A stretch of 64,000 nt of DNA from Chrysomallon squamiferum (Eukaryota; Animalia; Mollusca): NCBI GenBank assembly GCA_012295275.1, contig CM022675.1:17298001-17362000 (forward strand), in the 5' to 3' direction. The notes beneath the pieces are model-generated. The model was not told where the DNA came from, ran no database searches, and was given only the letters and a program-made list of their open reading frames with translations. How positions within the stretch are numbered: position 1 is the first letter of the stretch; every line of letters begins with the position of its first letter. The translations under genes and the position numbers were made by a program. Positions 1-63,783 of the stretch are shown here, piece after piece.

Positions 1-153
1 AAAGAATGAATCAATGAATATAATTTATTATTTATAATTGATAAAAAAATAACAGACATACTCAGTACATTACAGATAAGATGTATAAAGGAAGCAGTAG
101 TAGTAGTAGTAGTGGTAGTAGTAATAATAAAAATAATAAAGAAAATACATTAC

Positions 154-31371: not shown

Positions 31372-31412
<41 letters not shown>

Positions 31413-40400: not shown

Positions 40401-42281
40401 GTGCTTTGTGAGTTTTAGTGAATAAGGCTGATTGTCACAGTCAGGAGAAGATGTTCTTAGTCTAATTCCATTTACCTGTCACAAACAAAATTCAGCTATA
40501 ATTTTTAATTATTATTACATTTCTTAATTATTATTATTATTTTTTGGCATTTAAAATAATTATTCCTGAAAAACAAAAAAGGAGACTGACTAAAATTGAG
40601 AAAGATAGAGACAGTGGGAAAGAGAAACAGAGTAGGGGATGATATAAACAAGAATAAAAGGAAACAGAAATGAAAGACAAACAAAATAATATTAACTGGT
40701 AAACTGTAAATATGTTCTGATCCATTCAGTGTAGCCTTAGAGATGGCTGTTATTATTATTAGTATTATTATTATTATTTTAAACTAAAAAGAAACATAAA
40801 ATTCCACACTATCTGACAAAAATGAGTTTTAAATAAATATATTTAAAAGTGATTCTAATGAAATTTTGTTTTAAGTAAACAATAACACTGACTGTAAGAA
40901 GATCTCCTCTTCCAAAGAATATAACATCTGATTCTTGTCCATCATCATCAAACAGTGTGACATTGACAGTGTTTGTACAGGTAACCTTGCGATCCTTTCT
41001 ACCACATCGTTTGTTTTTCACCTCCACTCTGAATAGCTGAAGCCCAGCTTTTTGTTCCTTGGTAAGCCATGGGCAGGTACCTGACAGTAGGTATTTACAA
41101 GCTCCTTGGAAGTTGAATCTTGTTCCTAGACATGATGTTGGATGTGGATCTCCCCAAGCCGAACATTTGCAGATATCAGCTGGAAAGGATCAGTTATAAA
41201 GTATTTTATAGATTCAAATCAAATGGTTTTTTTAAAATGGAAACATGTATAGCAATAACTGAAGTACTGTTATCAACACGTAATAGCAATAGCAATCTAA
41301 TATGACTTGCAGTAATAACAAATCACTTTTCTATTGGTTATATAATATTAGTTACAACTGTTTCTTTTCAACATTGTTAACATTTTTATGAAGACTGTTC
41401 TCTAACTACATGTGTGTCAGTGTGTTATTCAGCTTTATCAATTTAACATTATAGTCTTCAGAAATAATAACTTGTTTCTGTTAGAATATAAACTGAATCA
41501 TAAGTTTACTTTAATAAATACCTCCACAGGATCTTTTGTCAGGGTCATAGATTTGTCCTGGTGGACACACACATCGGTAATGTCCAAACAGATTGTAACA
41601 TATCATGTTTCCTGGACAAGCATTATCTCCAAACAGTCTGCATTCATTTTCATCTGGAATAATATATTTCAACAAGAATAATAATAGCCGCAATAGAAAG
41701 AAGCAATAGCTGTTTTATTTGATCTAAACAAATTTGATGTATGCTATGGGAATATATGCATAATGAGTCAGTGAAGAAACTTCTGCCATCACATATATGC
41801 CTTTTCCCACAGACAGAAAAGCACATTCCATTGCCTTTGATAAACCAATCATGACAACTGTCAGTAATATGAATAGCATTAATAATAGTAATGGTAATAT
41901 CAATGTTTGTCATTGCAGCAAATGTAATAATTTGCAGTAGTGGTAATAACTGAAGATAATGGCATATATTTTCTTGTCTATGAAGACACTAGTAATGAGA
42001 AACTTTTACAAAATCATATGACCAATAGCAGTGGATCAGTAGCTACACTAATAATAACATTCTTCAAAAATGTATTCACCGACAGGGCACTGGAACTGAA
42101 TCCTGTATCTCACACATTTTCTTCCTTTGCATCGGAAGCCTCCTTTCCTTAGATTACAGATAACTCCCCCTTCTCCTGATTTGATTACTTTACCCTTGTT
42201 ATCATAGCAGCGAATTCCTGATGGTTTCTGACACTGTGGAAACTTAAATGTAAATAATAATAACACCATGTAAGTTAACTC

Positions 42282-42339
<58 letters not shown>

Positions 42340-45300
42340 CATAATAATAACAACAACAACATCAGCAACAACAACAATAATAACAATATCAATAAATCAA
42401 ATATAAAATTCATGGTAATAATATTTTCAGCAATTTAGCTGATTATCTATTTATTTCTGGAAAAAGTAGTAAGATGTATTTTATTTATAAGCTGTTGTTA
42501 ATCTGTTTCCATCAATACTGAAAAATAAATGACATAACATTTTCAAAGCACCTACCCTTGCCAAAGAAATCAAGTATCGAGGATTCAAGTAATATACTAC
42601 AGGTCTTCTTCGTTTTCCTGGAAGTCTTCTTGGACCAAATTTCCAAGACCATCGTTTTTTAATCTTTTCTTTCAATCGTGGATCTAATAATAATAATAAT
42701 AATAATAATAATACAGTAATATGACATGGACTAAATTAAAAAAGAAGTTATATCCACTCTTTTATGTGGATAATGATACACACAAAATGATACACACTTA
42801 ACAATAATAACATAGTATTTGTTTGAACTGACCATATTCACAAATATAACTCTTTGTCTTGAAACAATCAGCATATTCTCTTGTTGCTGTTGTCTCTCCT
42901 GCCTGTCTATAGCGTGTTTGCCTCTGGATTCGTCTTCTTGCTAGTTTCTTGTATGTTAGCAGCAATGTCCTGTAAATATTTCTTCGCACATACATATTCT
43001 TTGATCTTAATCCTCTGAAGTTAAATCTGATGCCTATTCCATACATTCTAATGAATCTTTGTATTTTCCTGGCCAAATATTTTCTATATTTGTAGCTGTT
43101 TCGGTTCACTTTTCCCTTCCATCTTCTTGTTCTTGTTCGGATAAAGAATCTCCTCCTTGATCGTCCTCGTGCATTCCTAACCATGACACAACCCATTGTT
43201 TTGTCTTCACCAATGTCTAGCTCAGCCTGAGGAAGATCAACTTGAGTAACATGAAGGAGATTGCTAACACGTCGTTGTGTCACCATTTTGTTTCCACCAA
43301 TCCAGAATTCTGAAAAATAAACAAATATATTATTTACAGATGATTTAAAACAGATTAGTATAAAATTAATGGAGAATGATGTAGTAACTTTAGTAAAGAT
43401 TCTAGATACACTGTATATATATAGATAGTGTTACTCTACACTGTTATTGTGAAATGCCATGAAATCTGATAAAAGAGGAAAATACATTAATCAATAGTTT
43501 TTTTGTCAGGACATAATTATTTCATTATCAGTACATTTTTGAAATGTTACTTTAATATTTTCTTTATTGTTCCCAAATATTAATTGTTTAATTATTATTG
43601 AATATTAAAATAGCTATTTAAAAAGATTAAATGAGAAAGAAACTAGCTGAAATATATTATAACTATTATTTATTAACCAGAGTTTTATATATCTAAATTC
43701 TAATATAAAATGTAGGCATGTAACTTGTACTTGGCAACAAGAATTTCAGAGCTTAATTATCAGTTAGACATATTCCAGTATCTATATTATCATTACTCAA
43801 CAAGAATATGATTATATAATATTTGAAAGTGATTAAAAATAAGTGTCCTAAGTTTTTCAATCCCTTTTCACTATAAAACTAATGTGTATTTTATGGATAT
43901 TTCCTTAATTTCATTCTGTATCAGTTTTCAGTAAAGTATTATATTGCTAGTTGTCAGTGTGGCTACTTTGTGGGATAAAAACCTGAGCGGCAGAGATGTC
44001 TTGACAACACTATCTTCAGATTGGACTCATCAGCATCATTGTCTATTCGTGCAAGACGAGCAAGATCAGCTTCCATGGCACAGGCCAAAGCAGCATCATG
44101 ATGCTTCTTCTCTTCATACAGAACTTTGTAACATTTGTTTGTGCCAAATGTTCGGAATCCTCTGGGACATTTGATTTTCCTGTTTGGTTTACCTGTAAGT
44201 TAAATAATTATATACTTTGCATTCATGATATGCCAAATACATAATGTTTTTAGTGGGTATTTTTAAATAATCTTTCTTGACTGTATTACATATATATAGA
44301 GCTGCCTTTATTCTGTGATGGCAGAGTTACTGTTTGTATTTATTTACAAGTTTGTAATGAATATCTGATACTTACAGTGTCTTCCATCACCCTTGAATCC
44401 TTTGTTACACACACATCGTCCATTCAGCAAACACCGTGCATTCCTGGAACATTTACCAAGTTTTTCTTTATGTTCAACTATGTCACCGTCTTTATTTCTT
44501 ACACATGTGTATTTTGTGTGACAGTGGTGAATGTAATAGGATTTGGGATTGTCAACCTGCATCAGAAAATAAAATATTTTATTAAAATACATACGTATAT
44601 ACAGAAACACACGCACTCACACACATGCACACAGATAGATAGATAGATTAAAAAGTTACTAGCATAAATAAAGGGGGATCATTATTTTACCTTTTTTTTC
44701 CTTTTTCAAAAATCATTTTATATTATTTATCAACATAATATACAACTACAAACACACATGTGGTTTACCTGACTACCCCCCCATATATATATATAAATAC
44801 ATAAATCAAGATTCCAGACCTTCAGATGAGTGGTGATTATAAATTGTAGTTATCTTTAATGATTAATATTGGCTAATAACATTAAACAGAAAAAAACCCA
44901 TCATCTATAAAACTGTTACTAAAATATTATTATTTCAATGAAGCAGATTTTTGCAAAACTTGAATGAAAACACAGGTGTATTATTCCCAGGTTCATATTT
45001 ATTTTCCATTAATTAGTTTTATTATGTCACCACAAACTGGAATGAGATAAGAAAGTACAATTATTATGCCCTTAAAATATTTTTTTTTTTTTGTTTGTTA
45101 ATAAAATATAACATTATTTTACAAACCTTCAAGTAATGGCCATTAACAACACATCCACATGCCTCAGTTGGCACACAGTCATCTCCTTGTTTAACAAAAC
45201 CTTCATTACAGGCACAGTCTAATTGCTTCTCATCAACATTACAGTTTTCTTCTGCATCCAGGTCAGCACAGGTGTTTTCACACACACTGTGGATTCGGAA

Positions 45301-48300
45301 CGAAGAATGGCGAGGACATTTCTTGGCTGAAAGAAAATGTAACGAATATTTAACAATAGTCAGGAACATTAAAATTAACACATAAAAATAATAATATTAT
45401 ATGTTTTATATGTGACAAACCAAGACAAACATTCCTTCATTTATTTGGGAAACAGAACATCACCCAGAAAAAAAAAGATGCATTGGCTAAAACATGTAAA
45501 AAAATGACAAGAACTTTATTAAACACTGTTTTCTCCCTATCATGAAATTTAATTATAGGATAATTTAATGACTTTTTAAATCAATTCTAATTATTCCAGA
45601 CTTGGAAATAAAATTAAATATGCAAATTACAAATTATTTGCATGTTTGTATGCACAGTTAAAAATACATATTACATATTTTGGATTCAGTATGAATAATT
45701 AGGTTTGATTAATTTTTAAAAATGGGACAAACTAATTTTAGATCAATGTAAACAAAACAAGGCTATAATATACTTACTGCATTGTCCTTTACTTGCAGGG
45801 TAGATGTTAATAAGAGCATCAGCAAACATATCTTTAGCTGCTCCAGCAGCAGTTTTCAGGTTGTCACAGAATTCACGTTTCTGTTCATTGTTGCAGTAAT
45901 CTTCTTCACACTGGTCCTGAAGTTTTTTCAGGAAGTCACTGATTAAAGAACCATCACACATTTTTTTACCTTTCAGAGCAGTCATGAATGGTCCATTAGG
46001 ATCAGTAATCATTCCACATCGTGATTTAGATCGGATGAATTGAAGTTCTTTCTTACTGCATTTTTTCAGGACCTTTGTTGTGGTGCATCTGAAAATAAAA
46101 AATAATAATAATAAAAAAAAAAATTAGGCAATTCTAATATAATTTAATTGAGAATAAAATCAAGCTTTGTAATTTTAAGTGGAAGTGTCAGTTTGTATTT
46201 TACTGACATCTGAGTATCTAATTTATGAATATATAAATAAAACATACTTTCCAAACTGTTCATCTGCAAGCCATGAATCACCAATTTGTCTGGCTTTGTC
46301 ATTCCGGTTTCTTCCTTTTGGTTTGGCTCCATTTCTCAGTCTAAATTCCACGTCTTGTTTGCCATTGAAGTTTCCACAAAGACCTTGAACCTGATTTATG
46401 AAAATATGCTCAAAACACTGCATACTAAAATATAATATGTTTTTCTCGTTTTGTGCTTCTCTCTGTGGGTGGATATATATTTATGATTTCTGTGCAAATA
46501 TAGCTGAGAAAACCACCATCATTGATTTTATTCCCACTCTTGGTAATTTTGAAATCACTGTCATCATTAACCTTACGAAACATTTAGGAACATTTTTTCC
46601 TATATTTCTTTTCTATGTGCAGCTTAAGTTTAAATCAACAAAGAACATTTTTATGAGAATGATATGATAAACTCACCTTTCCTTGGTATGACATAGGCAA
46701 ACGAATCTGCACATATGTTGATCCATCAAACATTACTTCTAAGCAGTTAGACAGCTTAATTTTCACAAAACGTCCAAAATGGTCAATTTGCATTGAATAA
46801 CCATCCATATCTTTGTTCCATGGCAAGTCAATTCTTTGCATGGCACCAGGCTCTCCAATCTAGAAATGAAGATGTAAAAAATAAATAACCAAGTCATAGT
46901 TATTAAAAATTATACGTTACAACATCATCTATAATTATTACTTTCAAAATTATTTTGTATGTTGTTTATTAAAATGACACATATATAACTGAAATTACTT
47001 TAAAAGTTTTTATAACATTGACAACAACTTAAGTCAGTAAATTTTCTTTGTCATTTATAACTGAGTCAAAAAGAGAATAACAAATTTCAAAAAATGAAAT
47101 TTAAAGTAATATAGTATCTGCATTGTCATATCACAACTTACTTCAACAACTCTTCTCTGGCCAAGTTTAATTGTGTATTTGTCAAAGGTGCATATTATGA
47201 AGTCAGTCCATGAAGGACGACCCCTAGGTCTTCTCCTTTTGTGATTCTGGACCTTGCAGCTGAATGGAATAACTCCACTACCTCCAATTACTGTTGTTTC
47301 AGACATCACATATGTGCATACTCCCATAAAATCTAACCGCTTATGGCAAGCATCAAAGGATCTGTAATGTGGATCACCACTGGCAGTGCAGATTCCAACA
47401 GCTGGAATTTGAATATCGTTCTTAAGCATTATATATAATAAACACAAAGTTATAACTGAAATACTTTCTTGTTAGCCATATAAATATTTTCAGTTAAACA
47501 TTTATATATGAAACATATATACTGATAAGCATGCACATGTACACATAAACATATACCATAAATATAAATATATAAATATGAATTACACATTCATACACTG
47601 ATGAACAGAGAATATTTAAGTGCCATCAAAGTGAAAATATGTGTATTCACACAAAATATTTCAAATAAAAACATTTTACTCACTCTGACATTTTCCTGCC
47701 TGATCACAACAACTACCAGAACACTGTCCTCGGCTTCTTCGTCTTCTTCCTACACATCGGAAACCTCCTCTCATGTTTCTACACTTTGCTCCTCTAGCTC
47801 GGCAGATATTGCGATTTTTTTTCAGTGCACAGAAATTGATGACTGTATAAACAAAAATAGGGCTCAGAACAGGCAAGCAATCTTTTCTTTTCAAATTTAT
47901 TCATAATATAAAATATCACAATAAAAGTTCTGGAATAAGCCATGACAATGAAAGTTTTGTTTTTAACCCCAAAAAAAAAAAAAAAAAAAATAAAAAAATA
48001 ATAATAATAATTAAAATAATATGTATATTAAAGTATTTGACCAAAAGTAATTATCCTTGGTTAATTTGCTTTACAGAAAGACTACTGATAAAATGGAAAA
48101 TTAGAGTATAAATGAAACTAAAAATTGCTTGCCAAAATGACTGCAGAAAAGTAAGTTAGTATTTAGGGCACCATTTACAAGCTGACAATCCCAGTTCCAT
48201 GTATGCATTCGCACATGCACACACTCACCCACACCAAAATAAATCATAAATACATAACACCTGTACACACAAACATATTTCATAAACAGAAGTGTCCTTA

Positions 48301-50940
48301 TATTTAATACACAAGTCCAATACATAAATAATTATAATAAGCTGTTTCATAAAAAATCCATTTTAAATAGCAAACATAATGAGAAAACAAAATTGTATAA
48401 AAACTTTTAAGATCATAGACCAAGATGTTATATCAGTATTTGAAATAATGCAAAAGAACATTGAAATTAAAGATTTTTAAATTAAATTACTGGAGCAGTT
48501 TTGTTAATAAATAACTGCTTTAAGGATTTTTGCTAATATTAATATTTATAAGTAATGTATTTTTGCTGAACAATACAAAATAAAAGGAAAAATTATTTAA
48601 AATTTGTATTTGAATCATAGCTATAAATCAATTACTATCATATTTACTGTATGCTGCACATACACTTAAATATTCTTATTATTACTAAAACAAACTTGAT
48701 CATAAATACCCTTTTCACAGAGAACCTTGATTTCAAAGTCAGGACAGTTCCTTCCCCTACACAGAATACCACCTCCGTTTCGCCACAGAGAGCATGGTCT
48801 GGCAAATCGTCTGCCCCTGTATCTACTTGTAACATAAGGACCTCCTCTAACACGGCATTTGATAGCCTTGGGGTATCTGCATAAGTTTCTGATTCGCCTT
48901 CGGATTTTCTGAATAGAGCAAAATATTTTAAGAATACAATTAATAAATTTTATATTTTACTATAATAAATAGTTATTAAAAAATTACACCTAATACATTC
49001 TTCCATCTATAACATTTTAGAATTCTTATAACATTTTGTGCACTGATGGAGTAAAAAATATTATTAATTCATAAATTCTTTTGTTCAGTATTCTTCATTC
49101 ATTCAATTTCCAATTAAATAGGAAATATGTGGATGTCTCGGGCAATGTTTTTGTTTTTGTAAACATATATTTCAGACTTCCTAATACTCTAGAGTACTGT
49201 ATGTTCACTTAATATACACTCTATAGTCTAATGGGCATGTTTGTACAGGAACGTCATTACACATACCCTTGATTTGCGACACCTGTTATAACTCTCATAC
49301 TCATAGCGTTTAGATGGTCTATGGTTGTTCATCCAAGGAGTCCATTCATATTCATTAGGATCAACATTATTGGCTGTGAAAAATAATTATTTATCAACTT
49401 CAGTATAATAATAATAATAGTTATAATAGTTATAATAAATATTGATATAAAAATAGAGAAATAAATACAGAGTTTCAATAACAGTATAAAAATAAAACTT
49501 TAGTAAGTTCACAATATGCCTATTAATAAAATAATAATAATGAAAAAGTGTGACATACTAAATTCACAGCAGAATCCTGATCGTCTGTTGCAGTTGGCCA
49601 GAACTGGTCGTCCATGTCGGTATCTTTCAAAGTCAACCATGACACATTTGTTCTTCGTGAAGTCAGCAGTATCAAGAGCTTCTTCTTCAGCCTGTTTCTT
49701 GATAGCATGATCAGTCATCAGACCTCGGAATCTCTTAGCTCTGAAAGATCCTCCACACCTCATAATGAAATCTTTGACAGCGTCTATTTCACCTCTGGCG
49801 AAAGCTCTCCTAAGAGAGCCTCTTGTTGTACTTCTGAAAAATACCTGGTGGGAAATAAAGAGAAAGTTTTTATCCTTGACAGGAATCTGTAAACAAGTTG
49901 TTATGACTAGTACATTTTATAATTTTTCTACTGAAGGCAGAATATAATTCAAATTAATCTTAAAAGTGCATCAAAATAATGAAATATGAAATAAACTAAA
50001 TATATTTCAGCTTGCGAGAAAAAAATTAAGATGTTTCTGGTAATTCTAATTTATTTATTAGAAAAATGCAGACAGTCAACAAATTTAGAATTTTGGTTAA
50101 TTTATCTGTTTTTGATAGTTACAAGACACATGAACAAATTATGTTTTCAGAAGACGTTTTGAGCCAGTTTAAAAATAACTAATAAAAAGATTTACTACTG
50201 CCCATAAATAATGTATATGAAATGTGTACATATTTACAGATAATTTTATATTTATTATAAGGCTTTGATATCAGTAAAATCTTATTAAAACTCCATGTAT
50301 TAACATTTTAGTTTTTATGAAAATAATTTTAAAAGTACCCTTCCATGTTTGACTCTTTCCACTTCTCCTGCTTCTCGCAACACTCGTCTGAAATCTATAT
50401 CCACACCAGCAGACCACCGATTCCTCCTCCTCCCTAATTAACAAACATTTAGAACTTTATTAGAAAATGTTCATGTATACTTTAATTATTGTTTTGATTA
50501 TTGTAAAGTGCATTATTACTGATATGATGGACATTTGTTTGTTTGTTTATTTATCTTTTATTTACACTTACTTCGATTGAATCGACCAAGTCGTCTCATG
50601 CCAGCAACGATATTTTTGACTCTGAAAAGTTCACCACCAATCCTTCGGCATCTAGCAAATGCTTCAGCATATGTTGCACGACAGTTAGAGCAGTACAGAC
50701 ATTTACCTTCCACATTTTTGAATGGACGCGGACAGAAGAACACATTGGACAGGGCTGTATGAAAATAACATTAAAGTGATTTAAAAATAGGGGACAAAAT
50801 GAATGAAAGAAAGAAATAAAAATAACAAAAGGAAAAGTGAATGAATCAAATAGAAGAAAAAAGAAAGAATTAGAGATTAAGAAGAGAATAAATGAACCTT
50901 AAATATAAAAACTCCTTTTCTTAATAAACAATAGGAAGAA

Positions 50941-51009
<69 letters not shown>

Positions 51010-54000
51010 CTCTCTCTCTTGCTCTCTCTCTTGCTCTCTCTGATAAACCCAGGGACAAATTTTTCACAAAGTCAGCTACATTTAATGCTACTTTACTAAA
51101 CTTTAAAGATATGTTTATCAAAAGAGAATAAAAAATAAACTGGATAGTTTATGTGACAAGCTAATGGCTAATAATGAATTTGTTATCTTTTTTTTTCCAT
51201 TTTAGATTTAGAAAAATACTTAACACTGAAACATAATTTAATTCTGAATAATAAGCCACAATTTTTTTAAATATTATTTTCTGATTTAAAATAGAAATTC
51301 TGATTAGAAAATTGCCGGTTAAATTATATCTTTCAAGTCTAGATTTAGAATAGGTAATAGATGTAGTTAAAATGAAAACTATAAATCAAGAGGGCAACCT
51401 TTTTCGAGAAGCGGGCCACATGAGACATGGCTCATCCTCAGGTACTAATTTAGGTGATTAATGTTATTTTCCTTGTGAAATTAGGCGGGCCACTGAGAAA
51501 ACCGCAGTTTGCCCATGACTGCTGTAAATCCTTCGGTTTTATAATAGCTATATAATATTATTTTTAAAAATTCATACCTATGCATTCTTTAACAAAATCT
51601 CGTCGTCCGTATCTTCCGTATTTAGATCGGCCTCTGTAACAACGACACTGAAGTCTGCTGGAACATCTAGCATTTCTGGGACATCGGTTTCTTTGGCCTC
51701 TCACATATTTCACCTTGCCATTTACACATCGTCGCGGACTTCTGCAGCCTTTCCTAAGGAAGAACCCTTCTCCGTGCTGTGTAATAAAACAGCATCAGTT
51801 CAAATTATTTGACGCTAGAATTCACGTTATTGTATATTCACTTAATAATCGAGTACTGTCGAAACGGTTCATCACCCTCCCCGGTATAAGGCATTCTCGT
51901 TTACTGCGTCCTCCCCCAAAAAAAAATTCTTGAGCTCCAAACATCTGAATTAAAAATATACATTATTTTTTCTCGTTTTGCAGTCCCCAGGCTATCTGCA
52001 AGCACAATAAAATTACCCAATAAACAGCCATCAGCCGATCATGTCTACCATATCAACTTGTAAGCTGATCGGACTTAAGTCAGACATCTAAGTTTACTGA
52101 ATCCATATTTTCTTTGTATAGTACTGTAAGTAATCACCTTGTTTGAACCTTAAGTCTGCACATTTCTATTCTTTCTTTAGTAAGCCTTTTAATTAGTTTA
52201 AATCAAACACAATTTGCTCTGCAGTATGTTTAATATTTGATACGTAAAAAGGAAGATCCATTTCCAATCATTCCGATATAAATTTTATTTATCTCTTTGT
52301 GCACTGTAAAAACAAGGATGTCGAACTTCTCATTAACGCAGTTTGTAAGCATCGAAACCTGTATGATACTAGTATACCAGAATATAGGGATCATGAACTT
52401 TCAGAAAAATCGAGGACTACAGTAAGCGTGGGTCCCTACAAAATATATAATATGAACTGCTATTGGTTTAAAAAAAAAAAAAAATGACGTGGATAATTCC
52501 TAAATGTACACTTTCCATTGAACGGCGAGTATTAACACAAACATGACTGTCGCTAAACTCAATTTTCTATACGAAAACATTTTTATTTTCTTGTAATTCC
52601 ACACTTCTTCCCAAAGTGTTTTTTAAGATTGTAATTAGGAAGCTTTGCTTTGTAAAAAATAATTCATATTCAAACATTTATTACACCAGTGAAAATATCA
52701 ATATTTGCATATGGCCGATACAGAAGTAATTAATTTGAACATATAAAATGCTAAAATATGGTTTTAATTCTTAATATATAAATTATAATTAATCATTAAA
52801 GTGAGACAAAACTTACTCTGTATGTTCTGTGGTTGACTCGGCATCGTTTACGGTACCTCCCTGTTTAAATATAAATCAGATTTGGTTTTAGTAAACTTTA
52901 ACATACATGCACACAGAGACAGTCATTTTCATATTTATTAGAGTAGAATATTATTTAGAAATTTAGAAGCCATAAAAGCAAAATTCAAATGTAATGCATA
53001 ACATACCAGAACATTAATAACGTAACAAATGCTTCCTTCTGAGTATTTCTCTATTAAGATATAAAAAACAAAAATTACTCACTGCGGCTGCCATCACGAT
53101 ACTCACCCAAATCAATTTGTTAGAGGAGTTTAAGAAACATCAGAAAGGTATATATTGAGAGAAAAAATATTGAAAATATTAAAACATGCAAAATAATGTA
53201 CACAAAGAAATCTAATAAAACATGCTACGAATAATATGCAAATGCGATTAAAACATGCTCTGAACATGCAAGTGCAAAAAAAAACACAAAAAAACACAAC
53301 AACAACAGCAAAATAAAAAAATAATTAAATAAAAAAATACAAATGAAACAGAAACTCCAAGGAAATTAAATTAATTCAGTTTTTTTTTTTTTTTTTTTTT
53401 TTGTTGTTGTTGTTGCTGCTGTTGTTGTTGTTTTGGAAAAATATTTTAATATCAATACCCATGATTTGTAATAATAATAATAATAACTGATCTCAGTTTT
53501 CATTATTCAAAATGAAAAAACATAGAATCTGAATTTATCTGTTATGCATAACCGCGTTCTTATGACTATTCATTTCGTAGGTTATATTTGGTTGTTTTTA
53601 TTATCGTCTGAATATGTTTGAATATTTAGATGGTTTATAAGGTATTGACTTTGTGAAAACGTTATTTTACTAGAAATATTTTTCGGGCTTCATACTCATA
53701 CAAACGTGCAGATTCATTTAAACTATGGAATTCAAAAAGGAATTAGAGATGTATTATGATTCAAAAGGAATTTTCATTTAAATTTAATATATTTGTTTAT
53801 CTTATATAAAAGATAAAGTGAAAAAAAAAAGGAGATTATTTCCGAATGCAGCATACACAATAATAATGAAACAATATTATAAAATGATAAAACTTTAGAG
53901 GAATTAGTTTGACGGATTTATTTTTTTGTTCCTTTTTAAACTATAAAATGTTTAACCTATTTGTAAGATTAGTACATTTGGTGGGGTATAATCTTACTGA

Positions 54001-56959
54001 ATAAATAAAAATATTTGCAATAAAATTGTTGTGTTCATGCTCTTATATTTAACTATATAAAATATATATAGGGTAGCTCAACGCCTAAATATCAGAGATC
54101 ATATAATATAGCCGCTAACTGGTGTCTATATTAGCTTCCATCTGAAAAATGTCCTTTGCGCCCAGAAACGAAGTCGATTAATAAAGACGATTGTATCTTA
54201 GATTCATTTTATTATTTTCGTCAAGTTTTTAGTAAAATTCATATATATTTTTTTAGTTTATTAGTTTTTTTATTTAGTGTCTACAAACCATATAAAACAA
54301 AATATGTCTGCCATTTCCTCTCAGATAATACTTTTTTTTTTCTGCCACGAAGATTTATTGAAATATTATTGTCAGATAGTTTATTATTATTATTATTATT
54401 ATTTCAATAAAGTTTATAAGCACGGGCTTATTTGCTATCTGATGAAAGATACCTATAAATATAATAATTTTCAAAACAAGTAATGCAGAAATATTGGATT
54501 GCAGATTAAAATAAGTGAACTCGTTTTCAATATTACGCACAGAATCACAGAAATATAATTCTTTAATTAATAACTGGAGTAAAACATTAAAAAAAAATGT
54601 ATATCACATAAAACAGGAAATTTAGAATGCTTCCTACCATTTATTATCAAAATGCGTGTAACAACGACATCGAAACAATGTTCTATGTAAATAATCGTAT
54701 ATGATTACATTTTATCGTAGTTATTTAAACACAAGTTGTAAAATTATTAATTGTTTAAGATACACATATAATTTTGATTAAAAGATTTCTTTGAGATAAT
54801 TCATCAATTTTAAGGATGTGTTTGTGGGTGGGTGGGTGTGTTCAGATAAATCAAAATTTCAAGTAAAAAGTATGGAGTAATAATGTAGATATATAAAAAT
54901 AGTCACTCCACAAAAAATAAAAGTAATAAAAATAATAAAACAATAAAAAATATAAAGAAAAGAGAAAGAAAAGGAAATTGTATGTATGTGTATATATATA
55001 AGAAAATATTTTATGATATGGTAAAAAATAGAAATGTCACCATTATAAACAAATTAAATGCACAACTAAATTTAAGGAATTTTTTCAAAGTTAAAAATTA
55101 AGTCAAAACAAAAGTGTATCTACGTACTACGATGTCTTCTTATATAACGTATCCACCATCTCTCTCGACCTGAAACAAGTTCATTAAATTTCTTTTAAAT
55201 TCTTCATAAAAAATATAGATATTCATTAAAATAATTAAAAAATTTATGACGCAACAATTTATAATTTCATATAAAGTCAACATCTTTTAATTAATTTATT
55301 TGTTTCTTTGTTTTATTGAGCTAACAATTTTAACGTATTTTTTCAAGACAAAATGATAACGCTAACAAGAAAGGTCAATAACATATTGAGATATAAACTA
55401 CTTTTTACTAACCTAGACCACGATGTCTTCTCAGCCATCGTCTCCAGTACTTGCCACCTCCTGAAATAATTGAATTACATTTCTGTTTATGTTCTTGTAA
55501 TGTTTATTTTATTATCTATTTCGATAATAAAGCATTCAAAACACTGTAAACTGATCAAGGACATACGGCCCCTCTTTCAGAATAAGAAATTATTTCGACC
55601 AGTCATACCTTTTACTTACAAATGATCCGTTCTCTCTAATCATATGATGCTAAAAATTACTGATAAAATCTATTAAAATAAAACAGAAAAGACCGAACCT
55701 GGTTTATTTAAAAAAGAAACTAAGTGTAATTATTATTATTATGATTATTATGATTATGATTATTATTGTTGTTGTTGTTGTTTTTTGTTTTTTTTTAAAG
55801 TATAATGTACTCACGTCTAAATGCTCTTATTCGACTTCGACTTGGTCCTGCGTGAAATAATAAAGAAATTCACATAAAGAAATTCACGTGAAAAAAAGAA
55901 AAACAAATGTACATAAATTACTTAAACGTATTTTCAAAACACGTAAAAACACGAAAAAACAATATTTTGATAAAATTGATATTCCACCTCTTCTTCTTCT
56001 TCATTTTCTTCTTCTAATCATTTACAGTTATAATGTTTGAAAAAGTAGAGCGAGAATGTCAGTTAACCTCAATCTTCTCATTCTGCGCTTCTATTATCAT
56101 TATTACTTTTCTTCTTCTTACTATTATTATTATTATTATTATTATTATTACTGTCATTATTATATTTACTTCTATGATGTCGATGTCTTCGTAGCCAACG
56201 TCTCCACCATCTCTCTCTTCCTATAAAGAAAAACAAAATAAAAACATTCACATGTAAGTGAATATCTTCAATATATTTTTCAATTTCTAAATATTTTATT
56301 TTATTATACTAAACAACATACTAACCTCGACCACGATGTTTTCTCAGCCATCTCCTCCAATATTTTCCACCACCTGAAATCAGTGAATATCAATATTCTT
56401 AACTTTCTTTATCCAACTAAATTTACTAGTTGTCGTGCAAAATGGCAATACAGTGGTCATAAAACATAAAGAAAAATTCAGTTCTTCATCTTCTTCTTCT
56501 TCTTCTTCTTCTCCTTATTATTATTATTATTATTATTATTATTGTCTTGATTTTTGCTGTTCTTGTTGATATTATTACTATTATTCTACACATCTGAAAA
56601 TTATAACTATATAAATATCCTAATGTTCATAATATCCAAAAATTAACTAACTGAAGTACCACAATTCTTTAATATGGAAAAACACACAAAATTATACTAA
56701 CGTCTGTAAGCTCGAATTCTGCTTCTGCTTGGCCCTAGAAGAGAATAAATCAATCGAATATTAGTAAATAAATATTTTAATACTAAAAATATACTTATCC
56801 TTTTGCTACAACAGATTTATCTAAAATGCAAAAATATTCTTTGTTATATTCATTTACTGCTATTATTTTCTCAAATGTTAAATCTGTATTTCCATTAGCC
56901 TCGCCATTTCAAAAATTATTTTCATATTATCATCACTGTCATCGTCATCATCATCGTTA

Positions 56960-57017
<58 letters not shown>

Positions 57018-57853
57018 AATTATTATTATTATCATCATTATAATTATTATATTTACTTCTGTGATGTCGATGTCTTCTCAGCCAACGTCTCCACCATCTC
57101 TCTCTTCCTATAAACAGTAAAAATAAAACAACTCGTGTGAGAGTGTATATCTCTAATTATGTTTTCAGTTATTCAGTATTTTCTTTCATTACAATTATAA
57201 TTACAAAAGTTTCACTAAACAACATACTAACCTCGACTACGATGTTTTCTCAGCCATCTCCTCCAATATTTTCCACCACCTGAAATCATTGAATATCAAT
57301 ATTCTTAACTTTCTTTATCCAACTAAATTTACTAGTTGTCGTGCAAAATGGCAATACAGTGGTCATAAAACATAAAGAAAAATTCAGTTCTTCTTCTTCT
57401 TCTTCTTCTTCTTCTTATTATTATTATTATTACTAATTTATTTTCTCGATGTTGGTGATCTTGTTCATATTGTTACTATTGTTATACACATGGGAAAATT
57501 ATAATTATATAAATATCCTAATTTTCATAATATCCAAAGATTTAAGCTAACTGAAGTACCATAATTCTTTGTTAGGGAAAAACACACAAAATTATACTAA
57601 CGTCTGTAAGCTCGAATTCTGCTTCTGCTTGGCCCTAGAAGAGAATAAATCAATCGAATATTAGTAAATAAATATTTTAATACTAAAAATATACTTATCC
57701 TTTTGCTACAACAGATTTATCTAAAATGTAAAAATATTCTTTGTTATATTCATTTACTGCTATTATTTTCTCAAATGTTAAATCTGTATTTCCATTAGCC
57801 TCGCCATTTAAAAAAATTATTTTCATTTATCATCATCATCATCATCATCATCA

Positions 57854-57893
<40 letters not shown>

Positions 57894-58274
57894 TATTATC
57901 AATTATTATTATCATCATTATAATTATTATATATTTACTTCTGTGATGTCGATGTCTTCTCAGCCAACGTCTCCACCATCTCTCTCTTCCTATGAACAGT
58001 AAAAATAAAACAACTCGTGTGAGAGTGTATATCTCTAATTATGTTTTCAGTTATTCAGTATTTTCTTTCATTACAATTATAATTACAAAAGTTTCACTAA
58101 ACAACATACTAACCTCGACTACGATGTTTTCTCAGCCATCTCCTCCAATATTTTCCACCACCTGAAATCATTGAATATCAATATTCTTAACTTTCTTTAT
58201 CCAACTAAATTTACTAGTTGTCGTGCAAAATGGCAATACAGTGGTCATAAAACATAAAGAAAAATTCAGTTCTT

Positions 58275-58305
<31 letters not shown>

Positions 58306-59161
58306 TTATTATTATTATTATTATTACTAATTTATTTTCTCGATGTTGGTGATCTTGTTCATATTGTTACTATTGTTATACACATGGGAAAATTATAATT
58401 ATATAAATATCCTAATTTTCATAATATCCAAAGATTTAAGCGAACTGAAGTACCATAATTCTTTATTAGGGAAAAACACACAAAATTATACTAACGTCTG
58501 TAAGCTCGAATTCTGCTTCTGCTTGGTCCTAGAAGAGAATAAATAAATCGAATATTAGTAAATAAATATTTTAATACTAAAAATATACTTATCCTTTTCC
58601 TACAACAGATTTATCTAAAATGTAAAAATATTCTTTGTTATATTCATTTTACTGCTATTATTTTCTCAAATGTTAAATCTGTATTTCCATTAGCCTCGCC
58701 ATTTTAAAAATTATTTTCATTTTATCATCATTGTCATCATCATCATCATTATTTTTATTATTATTATTATTATTATTTTTTATCATCATAATTATTATCA
58801 TTATAATTATTATATTTACTTCTGGGATGTCGATGTCTTCTCTTAGCCAACGTCTCCACCATCTCTCTCTTCCTATAAACAGTAAAAATAAAACAACTCG
58901 TGTGAGAGTGTATATCTCTAATTATGTTTTCAGTTATTCATTATTTTCTTTCATTACAATTATAATTACAAAAGTTTTCACTAAACAACATACTAACCTC
59001 GACCACGATGTTTTCTCAGCCATCTCCTCCAATATTTTCCACCACCTGAAATCATTGAATATCAATATTCTTAACTTTCTTTATCCAACTAAATTTACTA
59101 GTTGTCGTGCAAAATGGCAATACAGTGGTCATAAAACATAAAGAAAAATTCAGTTCTTCTT

Positions 59162-59192
<31 letters not shown>

Positions 59193-59631
59193 TTATTATT
59201 ATTACTAATTTATTTTCTCGATGTTGGTGATCTTGTTCATATTGTTAGTATTGTTATACACATGGGAAAATTATAATTATATAAATATCCTAATTTTCAT
59301 AATATCCAAAGATTTAAGCTAACTGAAGTACCATAATTCTTTATTAGGGAAAAACACACAAAATTATACTAACGTCTGTAAGCTCGAATTCTGCTTCTGC
59401 TTGGTCCTAGAAGAGAACAAATAAATCGAATATTAGTAAATAAATATTTTAATACTAAAAATATACTTATCCTTTTGCTACAACAGATTTATCTAAAATG
59501 TAAAAATATTCTTTGTTATATTCATTTACTGCTATTATTTTCTCAAATGTTAAATCTGTATTTCCATTAGCCTCGCCATTTTAAAAATTATTTTCATATT
59601 ATCATCACTGTCATCGTCATCATCATCATCA

Positions 59632-59675
<44 letters not shown>

Positions 59676-60507
59676 ATTATTATCATTATAATTATTATAT
59701 TTACTTCTGTGATGTCGATTACTTCTTAGCCAACGTCTCCACCATCTCTCTCTTCCTATAAACAATAAAAATAAAACAACTCGTGTGAGAGTGTATATCT
59801 CTAATTATGTTTTCAGTTATTCATTATTTTCTTTCATTACAATTATAATTACAAAAGTTTCACTAAGCAACATACTAACCTCGACCACGATGTTTTCTCA
59901 GCCATCTCCTCCAATATTTTCCACCACCTGAAATCATTGAATATCAATATTCTTAACTTTCTTTATCCAACTAAATTTACTAGTTGTCGTGCAAAATGGC
60001 AATACAGTGGTCATAAAACATAAAGAAAAATTCAGTTCTTCTTCTTCTTCTTCTTCTTCTTCTTATTATTATTATTACTAATTTATTTTCTCGATGTTGG
60101 TGATCGTGTTCATATTGTTAGTATTGTTATACACATGGGAAAATTATAATTATATAAATATCCTAATTTTCATAATATCCAAAGATTTAAGCTAACTGAA
60201 GTACCATAATTCTTTATTAGGGAAAAACACACAAAATTATACTAACGTCTGTAAGCTCGAATTCTGCTTCTGCTTGGTCCTAGAAGAGAATAAATAAATC
60301 GAATATTAGTAAATAAATATTTTAATACTAAAAATATACTTATCCTTTTGCTACAACAGATTTATCTAAAATGTAAAAATATTCTTTGTTATATTCATTT
60401 ACTGCTATTATTTTCTCAAATGTTAAATCTGTATTTCCATTAGCCTCGCCATTTTAAAAATTATTTTCATATTATCATCACTGTCATCGTCATCATCATC
60501 ATTGTTA

Positions 60508-60559
<52 letters not shown>

Positions 60560-63117
60560 AATTATTATTATTATCATCATTATAATTATTATATTTACTT
60601 CTGTGATGTCGATGTCTTCTTAGCCAACGTCTCCACCATCTCTCTCTTCCTATAAACAGTAAAAATAAAACAACTCGTGTGAGAGTGTATATCTCTAATT
60701 ATGTTTTCAGTTATTCAATATTTTCTTTCATTACAATTATAATTACAAAAGTTTCACTAAACAACATACTAACCTCGACCACGATGTTTTCTCAGCCATC
60801 TCCTCCAATATTTTCCACCACCTGAAATCATTGAATATCAATATTCTTAACTTTCTTTATCCAACTAAATTTGCTAGTTGTCGTGCAAAATGGCAATACA
60901 GTGGTCATAAAACATAAAGAAATATTCAGTTCCTCTTCTTCTCCTTCTTCTTCTTTTTATTATTATTATTATTATTACTAATTTATTTTCTCGATGTTGG
61001 TGATCTTGTTCATATTGTTAGTATTGTTACACACATGGGAAAATTATAATTATATAAATATCCTAATTTTCATAATATCCAAAGATTTAAGCTAACTGAA
61101 GTACCATAATTCTTTATTAGGGAAAAACACACAAAATTATACTAACGTCTGTAAGCTCGAATTCTGCTTCTGCTTGGTCCTAGAAGAGAATAAATAAATC
61201 GAATATTAGTAAATAAATATTTTAATACTAAAAATATACTTATCCTTTTCCTACAACAGATTTATCTAAAATGTAAAAATATTCTTTGTTATATTCATTT
61301 ACTGCTATTATTTTCTCAAATGTTAAATCTGTATTTCCATTAGCCTCGCCATTTTAAAAATTATTTTCATATTATCATCACTGTCATCGTCATCATCATC
61401 ATCATTGTTATTATAATTATTATTATCATCATTATAATTATTATATTTACTTCTGGGATGTCGATTACTTCTTAGCCAACGTCTCCACCATCTCTCTCTT
61501 CCTATAAACAATAAAAATAAAACAACTCGTGTGAGAGTGTATATCTCTAATTATGTTTTCAGTTATTCATTATTTTCTTTCATTACAATTATAATTACAA
61601 AAGTTTCACTAAACAACATACTAACCTCGACCACGATGTTTTCTCAGCCATCTCCTCCAATATTTTCCACCACCTGAAATCATTGAATATCAATATTCTT
61701 AACTTTCTTTATCCAACTAAATTTACTAGTTGTCGTGCAAAATGGCAATACAGTGGTCATAAAACATAAAGAAAAATTCAGTTCTTCTTCTTCTTCTTCT
61801 TCTTCTTCTTATTATTATTATTATTACTAATTTATTTTCTCGATGTTGGTGATCTTGTTCATATTGTTACTATTGTTATACACATGGGAAAATTATAATT
61901 ATATAAATATCCTAATTTTCATAATATCCAAAGATTTAAGCTAACTGAAGTACCATAATTCTTTATTAGGGAAAAACACACAAAATTATACTAACGTCTG
62001 TAAGCTCGAATTCTGCTTCTGCTTGGCCCTAGAAGAGAACAAATAAATCGAATATTAGTAAATAAATATTTTAATACTAAAAATATACTTATCCTTTTGC
62101 TACAACAGATTTATCTAAAATGTAAAAATATTCTTTGTTATATTCATTTACTGCTATTATTTTCTCAAATGTTAAATCTGTATTTCCATTAGCCTCGCCA
62201 TTTTAAAAATTATTTTCATTTTATCATCATTGTCATCATCATTATTATTATGATTACTATTATTATTATTTTTATCATCATAATTATTATCATTATAATC
62301 ATTATATTTACTTCTGTGACGTCGATGTCTTCTCAGCCAACGTCTCCACCATCTCTCTCTTCCTATAAACAGTAAAAATAAAACAACTCGTGTGAGAGTG
62401 TATATCTCTAATTATGTTTTCAGTTATTCATTATTTTCTTTCATTACAATTATAATTACAAAAGTTTTAGTAAACAACATACTAACCTCGACCACGATGT
62501 TTTCTCAGCCATCTCCTCCAATATTTTCCACCACCTGAAATCATTGAATATCAATATTCTTAACTTTCTTTATCCAACTAAATTTACTAGTTGTCGTGCA
62601 AAATGGCAATACAGTGGTCATAAAACATAAAGAAAAATTCAGTTCTTCTTCTTCTTCTTCTTCTTCTTCTTATTATTATTATTATTACTAATTTATTTTC
62701 TCGATGTTGGTGATCTTGTTCATATTGTTACTATTGTTATACACATGGGAAAATTATAATTATATAAATATCCTAATTTTCATAATATCCAAAGATTTAA
62801 GCTAACTGAAGTACCATAATTCTTTATTAGGGAAAAACACACAAAATTATACTAACGTCTGTAAGCTCGAATTCTGCTTCTGCTTGGTCCTAGAAGAGAA
62901 TAAATAAATCGAATATTAGTAAATAAATATTTTAATACTAAAAATATACTTATCCTTTTCCTACAACAGATTTATCTAAAATGTAAAAATATTCTTTGTT
63001 ATATTCATTTACTGCTATTATTTTCTCAAATGTTAAATCTGTATTTCCATTAGCCTCGCCATTTTAAAAATTATTTTCATATTATCATCACTGTCATCGT
63101 CATCATCATCATTGTTA

Positions 63118-63163
<46 letters not shown>

Positions 63164-63783
63164 TATTATTATTATCATCATTATAATTATTATATTTACT
63201 TCTGTGATGTCGATGTCTTCTTAGCCAACGTCTCCACCATCTCTCTCTTCCTATAAACAGTAAAAATAAAACAACTCGTGTGAGAGTGTATATCTCTAAT
63301 TATGTTTTCAGTTATTCAATATTTTCTTTCATTACAATTATAATTACAAAAGTTTCACTAAACAACATACTAACCTCGACCACGATGTTTTCTCAGCCAT
63401 CTCCTCCAATATTTTCCACCACCTGAAATCATTGAATATCAATATTCTTAACTTTCTTTATCCAACTAAATTTTCTAGTTGTCGTGCAAAATGGCAATAC
63501 AGTGGTCATAAAACATAAAGAAATATTCAGTTCCTCTTCTTCTCCTTCTTCTTCTTCTTTTTATTATTATTATTATTATTACTAATTTATTTTCTCGATG
63601 TTGGTGATCTTGTTCATATTGTTAGTATTGTTATACACATGGGAAAATTATAATTATATAAATATCCTAATTTTCATAATATCCAAAGATTTAAGCTAAC
63701 TGAAGTACTATAATTCTTTGTTAGGGAAAAACACATAAAATTATACTAACGTCTGTAAGCTCGAATTCTGCTTCTGCTTGGCC
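22379..63783 (-). CDS. Giant secreted mucin/FCGBP/zonadhesin-like multidomain protein (>3,300 aa in window, 5' end beyond 64000) with an N-terminal microexon-encoded Arg/Trp repeat
   Basis: Manually traced GT-AG exons, all phase-compatible, in transcript order after the microexon array: 52817-52860, 51578-51776, 50572-50754, 50339-50433, 49559-49844, 49267-49373, 48710-48908, 47684-47842, 47142-47401, 46677-46859, 46248-46390, 45778-46088, 45127-45326, 44376-44556, 43983-44192, 42833-43309, 42556-42683, 42080-42242, 41522-41653, 40893-41179, 40138-40475, 39256-39560, 38591-38814, 37742-37925, 36835-37032, 36182-36421, 35733-35824, 35296-35497, 34836-34964, 33401-33642, 32721-32998, 32135-32607, 31494-31693, 30989-31154, 30350-30454, 30022-30144, 29548-29676, 28972-29214, 28385-28471, 24765-24914, 23984-24190, 23472-23558, 23100-23192, 22879-23018, 22379-22462 (ends ...SCHC...YSVRRRR*). 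These 45 exons sum to 8666 nt, consistent with a phase-1 entry. Confidence 0.85.
23472..30454 (-). CDS. EGF, 2 x Ca-binding EGF, 2 x Kazal-like, TSP1-like and Pro/Glu-rich linker exons of the giant gene
   Basis: EGF_CA: [29 protein letters not shown] and DIDECKKSPC...CVNKNGGYVC. Kazal-like: APICEVGTSKTWPSICEFRASKC...EGAC and KVCKK...QY...RC...YGDC. TSP1-like (weak): FGPWKPKFKC...WC...GRT...QCNPC. Confidence 0.7.
25013..27822 (+). mobile_element. Full-length hAT DNA transposon (Buster/Charlie group), 2810 bp, intronic and antisense to the host gene
   Basis: TIRs CAGTGATTCTCAACC and (reverse complement) CAGTGTTTCTCAACC match at 14/15. A perfect 8-bp TSD, ATGTAAAC, lies at 25005-25012 and 27823-27830, with the central TA typical of Buster elements. 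Confidence 0.95.
25904..27649 (+). CDS. hAT (Buster/ZBED5-like) transposase, probably defective
   Basis: MDKFVKRK start, BED finger (CIVC...HFTTKH), VDESTD and CIDGA catalytic Asp motifs, HCFLH, VRWLS, LCELGFS catalytic Glu, and the family-typical QAQVSH* end. Confidence 0.9.
   Translation: MDKFVKRKDVSDGCEVETEHTMKPTKSSTKKAKVHHNRRYCDDYLKFGFSWSGDVAQPRPLCIVCGEKMANESMIPNKLQRHFTTKHSYLQDKDLNYFQRLLQQQSKQCNVFQKTMTVSERAQLASIESVILPACKKMVKSMLGETAEKEISKIPLSNDTIHRRIVDLSVNIETNVQKKLEGSKFALIVDESTDISNSAQLLVFVRFINDNEIINQFLCCKERPTTTRGQDIFDMITGYHKKMNLTWKFCVGICIDGAPCTVGCIKDFATLAQKENPNLVCTHCFLHREVLVSKVSQEDLKQVLHQVVEIVNSQHVRLLMHTDVRWLSKGKVLTRVHELQKELIVFFDKEKHERFCKYLRCEFWIAKMEYLTEIFCQLNIVNSSMQGRNENILTSTDKLVALKKKVVIWKNRAKLGEFDMFPTMRTNCTKEMIPIVVEHLTALEENIDHYFPSLNTEKYDWVRNPFVDVPSNIGFKLCEEEDLATISSDCSLKIKHSEVDIDTFWISIQKEFPALAEKALLVLLQFSTPYLCELGFSTLNNIKNKKRERLCSTEEEMRVCLSHIRLNIQEVIRQHQAQVSH
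31494..37925 (-). CDS. Super-module 3: TILa/EGF, C-type lectin-like, WxxW-like, EGF_CA, degenerate VWD, Pro/Thr-rich insert, C8, TIL-like
   Basis: CQEGWQQVLDKCVK...CNMQNGVLTSL...DC...FICQ (CTL); CPVPMGVSCR...CKKYEVRADC (WxxW-like); DVNEC...CVNLYGAYKC; YRKGMCGLC (VWD, no GDPH); TTTPPPETTAPP... Confidence 0.75.
33662..34260. repeat. Intronic minisatellite, ~54-57-bp unit built from AGT/AAT triplets
   Basis: The unit gtagaaacagtactactagtagttgtaatagattcagtaatagcagtagtaatagta is repeated about 9-10 times with variation. Confidence 0.85.
34387..34647. repeat. Diverged direct copy of 31911-32158 (intron plus the 3' end of exon 32135-32607)
   Basis: Collinear match acattgct.ttaattat...taatgaatacatt.ctttgta.tttacactttagta.attttataataatatt ... 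gttactt(a/g)caa...gagt.c.tgt.tttagca. The donor in the copy is GC instead of GT. Confidence 0.8.
38112..38464. repeat. Near-identical direct copy of 328-680 (homeobox exon 2 5' part plus upstream intron) inside an intron of the giant gene
   Basis: About 350 bp with only 4 substitutions seen by eye, bounded by (CT)n on both sides. Confidence 0.95.
38591..44556 (-). CDS. Super-module 2: TILa/EGF, C-type lectin-like with a cationic insertion, WxxW-like, EGF_CA, VWD, C8, TIL
   Basis: CPRGFRTFGTNKCYK...EFWIG...GCVMV...ADC...SYICE; DENEC...CYNLFGHYRC; CSAWGDPHP...NFQGACKYLL...YIGKLCGICG...FGNTWQV; CELTC...CTC...CVKPSDCGC. Confidence 0.85.
45127..52860 (-). CDS. Super-module 1 (Arg-rich): TILa/EGF, C-type lectin-like, WxxW, EGF, VWD, C8, TIL
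   Basis: CRVNHRTYRHGEGFF...C; CPRPFKNVEGKCLY...CRRIGGEL...NC...FCCE; EWTPWMNNHRP...CRYPKAIKCR...CPDFEIKVLC; CTASGDPHYRSFD...DFMGVCTYVM...VQGLCGNFNG...GDSW; CPRHSSF...CENTC...CACNEGFV...CVPTEACGC. Confidence 0.88.
51387..51521. mobile_element. Degenerate 135-bp hAT (Charlie-like) MITE remnant
   Basis: Ends CAAGAGGGCAACCT and (reverse complement) CAGTCATGGGCAAACT; flanking 8-mers CTATAAAT and CTGTAAAT match at 7/8; two internal GCGGGCCAC motifs. Confidence 0.6.
52317..52428 (+). pseudogene. MADF (Myb/SANT-like) domain fragment, likely a PIF/Harbinger relic
   Basis: DVELLINAVCKHRNLYDTSIPEYRDHELSEKSRTTV fits the MADF pattern LIxxVxxxxxL(W/Y)DxxxxxY(R/K)DxxxxxxxWxxV with the Trp lost. It is isolated and intronic. 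Confidence 0.5.
55128..63783 (-). CDS. 30 symmetric phase-1 microexons (10 C-B-A triplets) encoding a 44-aa Arg/Trp/His-rich repeat
   Basis: Lowest coordinates are given. C exons (33 nt, R-PSRSRIRAYR): 63751, 62857, 61996, 61147, 60247, 59374, 58496, 57602, 56702, 55815. B exons (48 nt, R-GGKYWRRWLRKHRGR): 63375, 62487, 61626, 60774, 59880, 58998, 58114, 57232, 56326, 55413. A exons (51 nt, G-RERWWRRWLRRHRHHR): 63200, 62312, 61451, 60599, 59705, 58820 (53 nt), 57939, 57057, 56170, 55128 (42 nt). Each has a pyrimidine-rich YAG acceptor and a GT donor (gttagt, gtaaat, gtgagt or gtacgt). Confidence 0.88.

Follow-up and report, generated by a model that had tools for sequence, protein, structure and literature searches.

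A tandem array of very short exons encoding an Arg- and Trp-rich peptide raises the question of whether such a low-complexity repeat is kept for its peptide or for its DNA, and of which protein it is a part. At least ten tandem triplets of phase-1 microexons lie on the minus strand of the DNA analyzed here (the window, 64,000 nucleotides of Chrysomallon squamiferum), in an array that runs past the window end. An earlier note on this DNA had proposed that the 3'-most triplet (exons C', B' and A') escaped homogenization of the internal units, that its peptides are conserved within introns unlike those of the array, and that the exons belong to a VWD gene.

Organization of the microexon array

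Each array-type unit contains exon C (33 nt, peptide PSRSRIRAYR), exon B (48 nt, GGKYWRRWLRKHRGR) and exon A (51 nt, RERWWRRWLRRHRHHR), spaced by introns with TAA and GAA microsatellites, and measures 849–906 bp (~880 bp) in a window of ~30% G+C that is rich in microsatellites (Table 1). One unit encodes 44 amino acids, 43% Arg and 11% Trp, with 21 R+K versus 1 D+E. Splice signals are present for 30 of the 30 microexons, and an RNA joint is seen for A' only. Microexons are delimited either at 51 nt or, more strictly, at 27–30 nt; the exons of the array, being short (33–51 nt), frame-preserving and spliced, fit the former definition and not the latter. Exons B and A are mutually related (family D10), with 4 silent differences and 1 K/R exchange, counted by hand, over the nine codons of WRRWLR(K/R)HR. 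All copies of A and B contain the W-x-x-W motif, as does B'; A', which is 9 nt shorter than array exon A, has W-x-x-Y. The single 53-nt A copy shifts the frame into a stop if it is included, and is possibly an error, a skipped exon or a null copy.

Table 1 Features of the microexon array and its host gene, with positions in the window
Feature	Position	Strand	Remarks
Nine array-type triplets, microexons C/B/A	56170..63783	minus	AG..GT bounds, phase 1-1
A copy of 53 nt, 2-nt insertion in AG run	58820..58872	minus	
Last array-type unit	56170..56734	minus	partly homogenized
Last array-type exon A	56220-56170	minus	silent changes only
Edge exon C' (PSRSRIRAFR)	55847-55815	minus	8 synonymous / 1 non-synonymous
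Edge exon B' (GGKYWRRWLRRHRGL)	55460-55413	minus	6 synonymous / 2 non-synonymous
Edge exon A' (RERWWIRYIRRHR), 42 nt	55169-55128	minus	3 synonymous / 4 non-synonymous; donor set by X8 contig
Arg-rich exon, 44 nt, phase 1 in	52817..52860	minus	upstream: A' in X8, C-like exon in X9
Arg/Cys-rich exon, 199 nt	51578..51776	minus	joint to 52817 in X8 and X9
18 further modelled exons, open frame	40893..50754	minus	RNA touches only the joint into 50754
Likely rest of gene: VWD end, C8, lectin-like, EGF_CA exons, Thr-rich stretch	28825..40478	minus	

Two junctions at the edge of the array

Eleven sequencing runs are listed, none of them on record as RNA, and four were mapped to 51100–54900. Two of these, X8 and X9, are samples of one study labelled 'DNA?'; the sole ground for treating them as RNA is that their contigs (4701 and 5515 nt, respectively) skip a GT..AG intron, and contig depth gives no ranking of expression. 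Both contigs cover exons 52860–52817 and 51776–51578 with zero mismatches in 243 nt, and both run downstream into exon 50754. The joint 52817/51776, which skips a 1040-nt intron with GT..AG on the minus strand, is present in X8 and X9 and not in X1, which covers the intron as DNA, or in X10, which gives only short scattered matches.

Upstream of exon 52860 the two contigs differ. X8 continues into position 55128, and since A' is thereby spliced in frame to the downstream gene, the array is part of a VWD/EGF/CysD/lectin-like protein, as the earlier note had guessed. The loose letters of X8 number 145, a length that fits A', B', C' and 22 nt of A (the first 30 letters were seen). In X9, 155 other letters are joined to the same acceptor in place of A', which makes the last triplet dispensable in this sample. 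The last 30 of these letters have no match in the window at three mismatches, and the C-like exon to which they belong has none in metagenome contigs; read by hand, its end gives FISRIEAFR in frame, and 17 of its last 22 bases align with array exon C. AFR is common to the X9 exon and C', against AYR in the array, so that Phe may be ancestral, with Tyr having later spread through the interior. Each run shows a single junction. The X9 junction is most simply read either as the splicing of a 5' edge exon past the entire array or as an array-less haplotype; a recent paralogue is less likely than either, given the absence of mismatches in 243 nt.

Two alternative gene models were rejected. A' as a terminal exon with an in-frame TAG at 55122–55120, which would make the array a separate gene, is ruled out because X8 splices at 55128, and a separate first exon of the VWD gene near 53100 has no X8 or X9 cover, both contigs joining 52860 elsewhere. 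Read-through at the A' donor (55119–55127, minus strand) meets the in-frame TAG after two codons, and intron retention there would yield an array-only protein; further on, only low-depth intronic contigs were seen. Exon 52817–52860 ends in R-T-Y-R (compare R-A-Y-R in exon C) and stands after A' in the position that C takes after A; it is possibly a far older paralogue of C.

The host protein

A model that starts from exon B at 58161 and proceeds via A' through 20 more exons is open over 1485 codons, with 12 microexons and no stop; one acceptor is placed 3 nt off, and the frame is unaffected. The modelled exons from 50754 to 40893 encode, in this order, CysD/WxxW-like, EGF-like, VWD, TIL, EGF-like, Arg-rich lectin-like and CysD-like modules and a second VWD. 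VWD (three exons), TIL and EGF_CA score above the Pfam cut-off; C8 (E 0.0046), Lectin_C (E 0.073), further EGF modules and, on three single exons, Mucin2_WxxW (CysD; E 0.003–0.042) score below it, and the Atlas leads to lectins are weak (0.80–0.83). The core is itself basic: 12 of its first 13 blocks contain 15–32 R+K per 100 residues, and the first 1250 residues downstream of the array are likewise basic.

Between its lectin-like motifs (FWIG ... CxxxxxxICE, by eye), the Arg-rich lectin-like exon has a long Arg/Tyr-rich insertion (42833–43309, minus strand). Gel-forming mucins are defined by VWD-C8-TIL modules, CysD (WxxW) domains, a long PTS domain and a C-terminal cystine knot; of these, VWD and TIL pass the cut-off in the modelled part of the snail gene, the CysD scores stay below it, and the only stretch reminiscent of a PTS domain is a short Thr/Pro-rich exon near 32600. 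A 57-nt tandem repeat at 33664–34261, partly Thr/Ser-rich and with a frame change, probably lies in an intron, immediately before an exon. No annotation transfers to the host protein, because searches for homologues found none: none of 67 and none of 26 candidates was homologous to the VWD exons in searches that covered proteins up to 2000 aa, the Arg-rich lectin-like exon had no match among 1.84 billion representatives, Atlas leads were under 0.9 or absent, and a scan for related loci returned one off-frame chance match, on a bacterial contig (L001).

Proposed function of the repeat

With modest confidence, we lean towards a reading of the sequence in which the array, spliced onto a large VWD/EGF/TIL protein, homogenized and under selection, would serve to cross-link mucus or glue through its cationic and aromatic residues. 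The protein is likely to be secreted, its 5' end, where a signal peptide would be expected, lying beyond the window. The B and A peptides are predicted to form amphipathic helices with an aromatic/Leu face (Y/W-W-x-x-W-L) opposite an Arg face; the helical hydrophobic moment exceeds that of shuffled sequences for A (10 of 2000), B (42 of 2000) and B' (51 of 2000) and is borderline for A' (103 of 2000). The helical moment of exon C is not above that of its shuffles; a β-strand was tried for it and rejected, the moment at 170 degrees not being significant (124 of 2000 shuffles), and a thrombospondin-like Trp-Arg ladder is a guess. The repeat would bind polyanions such as sulfated mucus glycans, Arg-Trp cation-π contacts would give cohesion, and the disulfide-rich core would polymerize. 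Since the exons are phase 1 and multiples of three in length, copy number or exon skipping alters the length of the cationic block and leaves the frame intact.

A tentative extension, which we regard as possible and rather doubtful, is that one gene makes two materials, the choice of splice site either inserting at least ten triplets or joining a 5' edge C-type exon directly to exon 52860. The former product would be a cationic, cation-π cross-linked glue or antimicrobial form and the latter a plainer form of the polymer-forming protein, and the WRRW helices would represent a novel motif of natural underwater cohesion.

It is unlikely, on the sequence features considered here, that the same gene with the same evolution serves instead as a store of membrane-active Trp/Arg peptides for the defence of mucus or of an egg coat, where they would be freed at dibasic sites or stay tethered in the gel and kill or clump microbes. 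B and A are predicted to be amphipathic and are strongly cationic, and Arg-Arg sites occur at the exon joints; however, each WRRW core itself contains Arg-Arg, and convertases would thus cut within the peptide. Multipeptide antimicrobial precursors have acidic spacers between their active peptides, whereas the snail repeat has neither acidic spacer nor pro-piece, with 1 acidic residue in 44. Similar basic stretches within the folded core fit a role for charge in the whole protein, and the cores are invariant, without diversifying selection. Antimicrobial peptides rich in Trp and Arg are well known as a class (PMC6017362, PMC3818835), and cross-linking and antimicrobial roles can coexist, as in cuttlefish egg-case proteins, which are described as both structural and bacteriostatic (PMC4500399).

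Probable homogenization of the array and escape of its edge

The eight copies of each internal intron class differ by only 1.4–2.6% in mean substitutions, and the introns have thus been homogenized along with the exons. Identity to the array drops stepwise towards the 3' edge, from 98% to 91% and 79%, then to shared microsatellite only, and then to none. The last array-type unit stands at the 91% (C-B intron) and 79% (B-A intron) steps, and is a patchwork in which 158 of 160 positions over 56494–56335, covering exon B, are identical to the array between stretches at 65–85%. Further out, the B'-A' intron has a local score against the array of 28, with shuffles reaching 33, and the A-C' and C'-B' introns score 90 and 43, above shuffle maxima of 38 and 34, by virtue of a shared TAA/CAA microsatellite. 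The description of the edge introns as unlike the array therefore holds for B'-A' and, apart from the microsatellite, for A-C' and C'-B', but not for the intron before exon 56220, which is array-like in 81 of 102 columns (79%; shuffled 65%).

Among the eight internal units, 84 of 210 pairs of 21 informative sites are incompatible in the four-gamete test. This mosaic sharing, to which the assembly of mixed haplotypes could contribute, together with the conversion-like tract of 158 identities in 160, indicates exchange among units, and the proposal that internal units are homogenized while the edge escaped is supported; concerted evolution in the strict sense, with units closer within a species than to orthologous units of another, is a candidate description. 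From these sequence patterns, the array is likely to be homogenized by unequal crossing-over and gene conversion, both losing effect towards its edge. An improbable alternative is that the array arose by recent tandem duplications of one triplet in an old two- or three-triplet gene, with little continuing homogenization, an edge that never 'escaped' and a mosaic partly due to mixed-haplotype assembly. The small difference among internal units, the one frameshifted copy and the origin of the evidence in one species' assembly suit such a history, and haplotype mixing could account for part of the mosaic and frameshift picture; the four-gamete incompatibilities, the stepwise drop in identity and a near-identical 160-nt tract between diverged stretches, as conversion would leave, speak against it. 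The evolutionary pattern of homogenization with escape at the edge is already known and of textbook standing.

Signal of purifying selection on the edge triplet

Substitutions in the edge exons were counted over every codon, including junction codons, with the unit 60279–59880/60649 as reference. In C' the excess of synonymous nucleotide steps over its 11 codons has P=2.4e-4; the seven synonymous codon changes and single Y>F that had been described for this exon are correct in both coordinates and codons. B' had been called wholly synonymous, which is right for the six codons quoted (synonymous or identical), whereas the whole exon adds K>R and R>L (P=0.0065). A', inside the range given by the earlier note but passed over in its text, has R>I, which is not conservative, and W>Y and L>I, which are, and retains an aromatic and an aliphatic residue at the two positions of the face; constraint on A' alone is not significant (pN/pS 0.41, P=0.21). 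Pooled over C', B' and A', 17 synonymous changes stand against 7 non-synonymous ones (pS 0.53, pN 0.077, pN/pS 0.14, binomial P=5.5e-6).

When the same 24 substitutions were placed at random, in a run that took A' to 2 nt beyond its true donor, the mean was 14.8 residue changes versus the 7 observed, and none of 20,000 placements was as low. The other two frames of C' and B' give pN/pS of 1.39 and 0.86. One reverse-strand frame also leans towards synonymous changes, more weakly (5/3 in C' and 5/3 in B'), and the minus-strand reading is adopted because splice signals and the RNA joint favor it. The feature is real, and its selection signal is sound in C', B' and the pooled triplet, since the synonymous excess is frame-specific and is not approached by random placement. 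A dN/dS near 1, or equal conservation in another frame or strand, had been named as grounds for doubt: the pooled ratio and the two other frames speak against both, A' by itself being without significant constraint and one reverse frame leaning more weakly the same way. Our comparison thus supports purifying selection on the peptide for C', B' and the pooled triplet, and selection probably maintains the Arg/Trp peptide as such. That purine-rich splicing enhancers, or charge alone, are conserved instead, or that small numbers mislead, is very improbable and largely refuted: the exons are short and purine-rich, the triplet has just 41 codons and the best-looking ones had been chosen at first, but the 24 substitutions in 123 sites fall 17 to 7 on silent sites, first-position AGA/CGA swaps included, the uncharged residues P, S, I, A, G, W and L are kept, and the P value above comes from a test on all codons.

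Inside the array the signal is weaker. Exon 56220–56170 differs from the copy at 60649 by 2 synonymous and 0 non-synonymous changes (P=0.051), and its CTA CGA, versus CTG AGA, had been quoted correctly as an edge difference, although CTA occurs in five of the eight in-frame A copies. The array copies contain five replacement versus two silent variants (Fisher P=0.078 against the edge), with all five replacements in the tails and the W-x-x-W-L-R core free of replacement in every copy. Given this ratio and the one frameshifted copy, the explanation is either weak constraint on single internal copies or imperfect assembly. The claim that the repeat is old stands in a relative sense only, pooled dS being about 0.9 from 32 sites and C' near saturation.

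Other features of the window

On the plus strand, two single-exon genes (11898–13091 and 19492–20328) are paralogues that have one domain in common and begin with signal-peptide-like sequences; one of them carries a GQNPMM hexapeptide repeat. The domain recalls Cu/Zn superoxide dismutase by eye, with no such Pfam match. The gene at 19501–20325 has 16 relatives, two at 68–72% identity, one at 51% and 13 uncharacterized Haliotis proteins at 43–55%. The window also contains a homeodomain exon (150–470, minus strand; Pfam E 2e-20), which we take to be Rough-like, a 594-aa ORF resembling a hAT-type transposase (25865–27649, plus strand; weak Pfam matches), a Cys-rich exon with a hydrophobic end (7186–7527, minus strand), Ly6/uPAR-like by eye and without Pfam match, and a short dispersed repeat (51392–51530) whose depth reaches thousands in DNA run X1.

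Comparison with known systems

The gene architecture has a close counterpart in SmPoMuc of Schistosoma mansoni, a mucin gene whose 5' end holds up to ~20 repeats of a ~1-kb unit formed by a 27-nt exon with its introns, the units being >93% identical, with microsatellites between them and alternative splicing (PMC2576457). Both are mucin-like genes with tiny exons and introns in tandem ~1-kb units; however, SmPoMuc has one exon per unit and is a multigene family, and no centre-to-edge gradient was found for it in PMC2576457, whereas the snail gene has units of three exons that change clearly towards the edge, an Arg/Trp peptide and a VWD core. Homogenization of exon-intron units within a gene is shared with spider silk genes, i.e., Argiope MaSp2, whose iterated introns are on average 97.6% identical when the first and last are excluded (PMC9779670), and Flag (as cited in PMC2576457); there, too, alternating intron types form a larger unit and the peptide is kept while introns turn over, but the exons are large, Gly/Ala-rich fibroin exons unrelated in sequence to the snail array. 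Crossing-over and conversion fading at the edge is the model given for SOWgp and silk genes (PMC2576457). Diverged edge repeats around a homogenized interior are likewise described for abalone VERL (PMC2704960) and Coccidioides SOWgp (as cited in PMC2576457), although the VERL edge repeats, of ~153 aa, are positively selected (PMC2704960), whereas C' and B' are under purifying selection.

For the protein itself, flatworm ap1 (Macrostomum) appears to be the closest working model, judged by analogy. Mlig-ap1 is reported to be cohesive and heparin-inhibited, with Lys/Arg-rich ends and a lectin-VWD-C8-TIL-EGF core (PMC6410801); a very basic, repetitive terminal region is common to both (PMC6410801, PMC8621496), as are VWD, TIL and EGF modules, while the C8 and lectin likenesses of the snail core lie below the Pfam cut-off. 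In ap1 the repeats are GRK repeats without Trp, and there is one VWD module and many EGF modules (PMC6410801, PMC8621496). The snail protein, compared with it by description only, has in contrast WxxW helices encoded by microexons, CysD-like modules, at least two VWD modules and a different domain order. Its terminal repeat region is highly basic, as in ap1-type proteins, but Arg/Trp/His-rich with WxxW instead of GRK-type, and the snail protein is for this reason not classed as an ap1 member. The ap1-type adhesives are further defined by adhesive-gland expression and by a loss of adhesion when knocked down.

The mussel protein pvfp-1 of Perna viridis reportedly contains a WxxW decapeptide and has no VWD core. 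Its modified Trp and Lys give cation-π cohesion (PMC12721214), a pairing of Trp with basic residues in a mollusc repeat that resembles the snail array, except that the basic residue is Lys in pvfp-1 and Arg in the snail. WxxW is a C-mannosylation motif in which small residues are favored at +1 (PMC8433626), and pvfp-1 is listed as C-mannosylated (PMC12721214, PMC8433626); the snail WxxW has Arg at that position, and would carry a hexose on Trp if it were C-mannosylated. Large secreted proteins with VWD, C-type lectin-like, EGF, C8 and TIL domains are also known from limpet pedal mucus (P-vulgata_1 to 3, PMC7333891) and resemble the snail protein as far as its VWD, TIL and EGF modules and its weaker C8 and lectin likenesses go; the word 'arginine' is absent from the main text of that paper, whose relevant passages describe no cationic Trp repeat.

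Implications

Literature searches covering mostly open-access main texts returned neither 'WRRWLR' nor a paper on an Arg/Trp microexon gene like that of the snail or on its two junctions, and within that scope neither a gastropod VWD gene with triplets of Arg/Trp microexons nor the two junctions have a precedent in print. The presence of the two junctions in two samples makes skipping of the array directly testable. The edge triplet serves as a built-in outgroup, by which a single genome shows that an Arg/Trp low-complexity repeat is selected as a peptide, and it also indicates which residues matter. It suggests that a mollusc VWD protein carries a cationic-aromatic module not described before, one that would be relevant to wet adhesion and to mucus defence.
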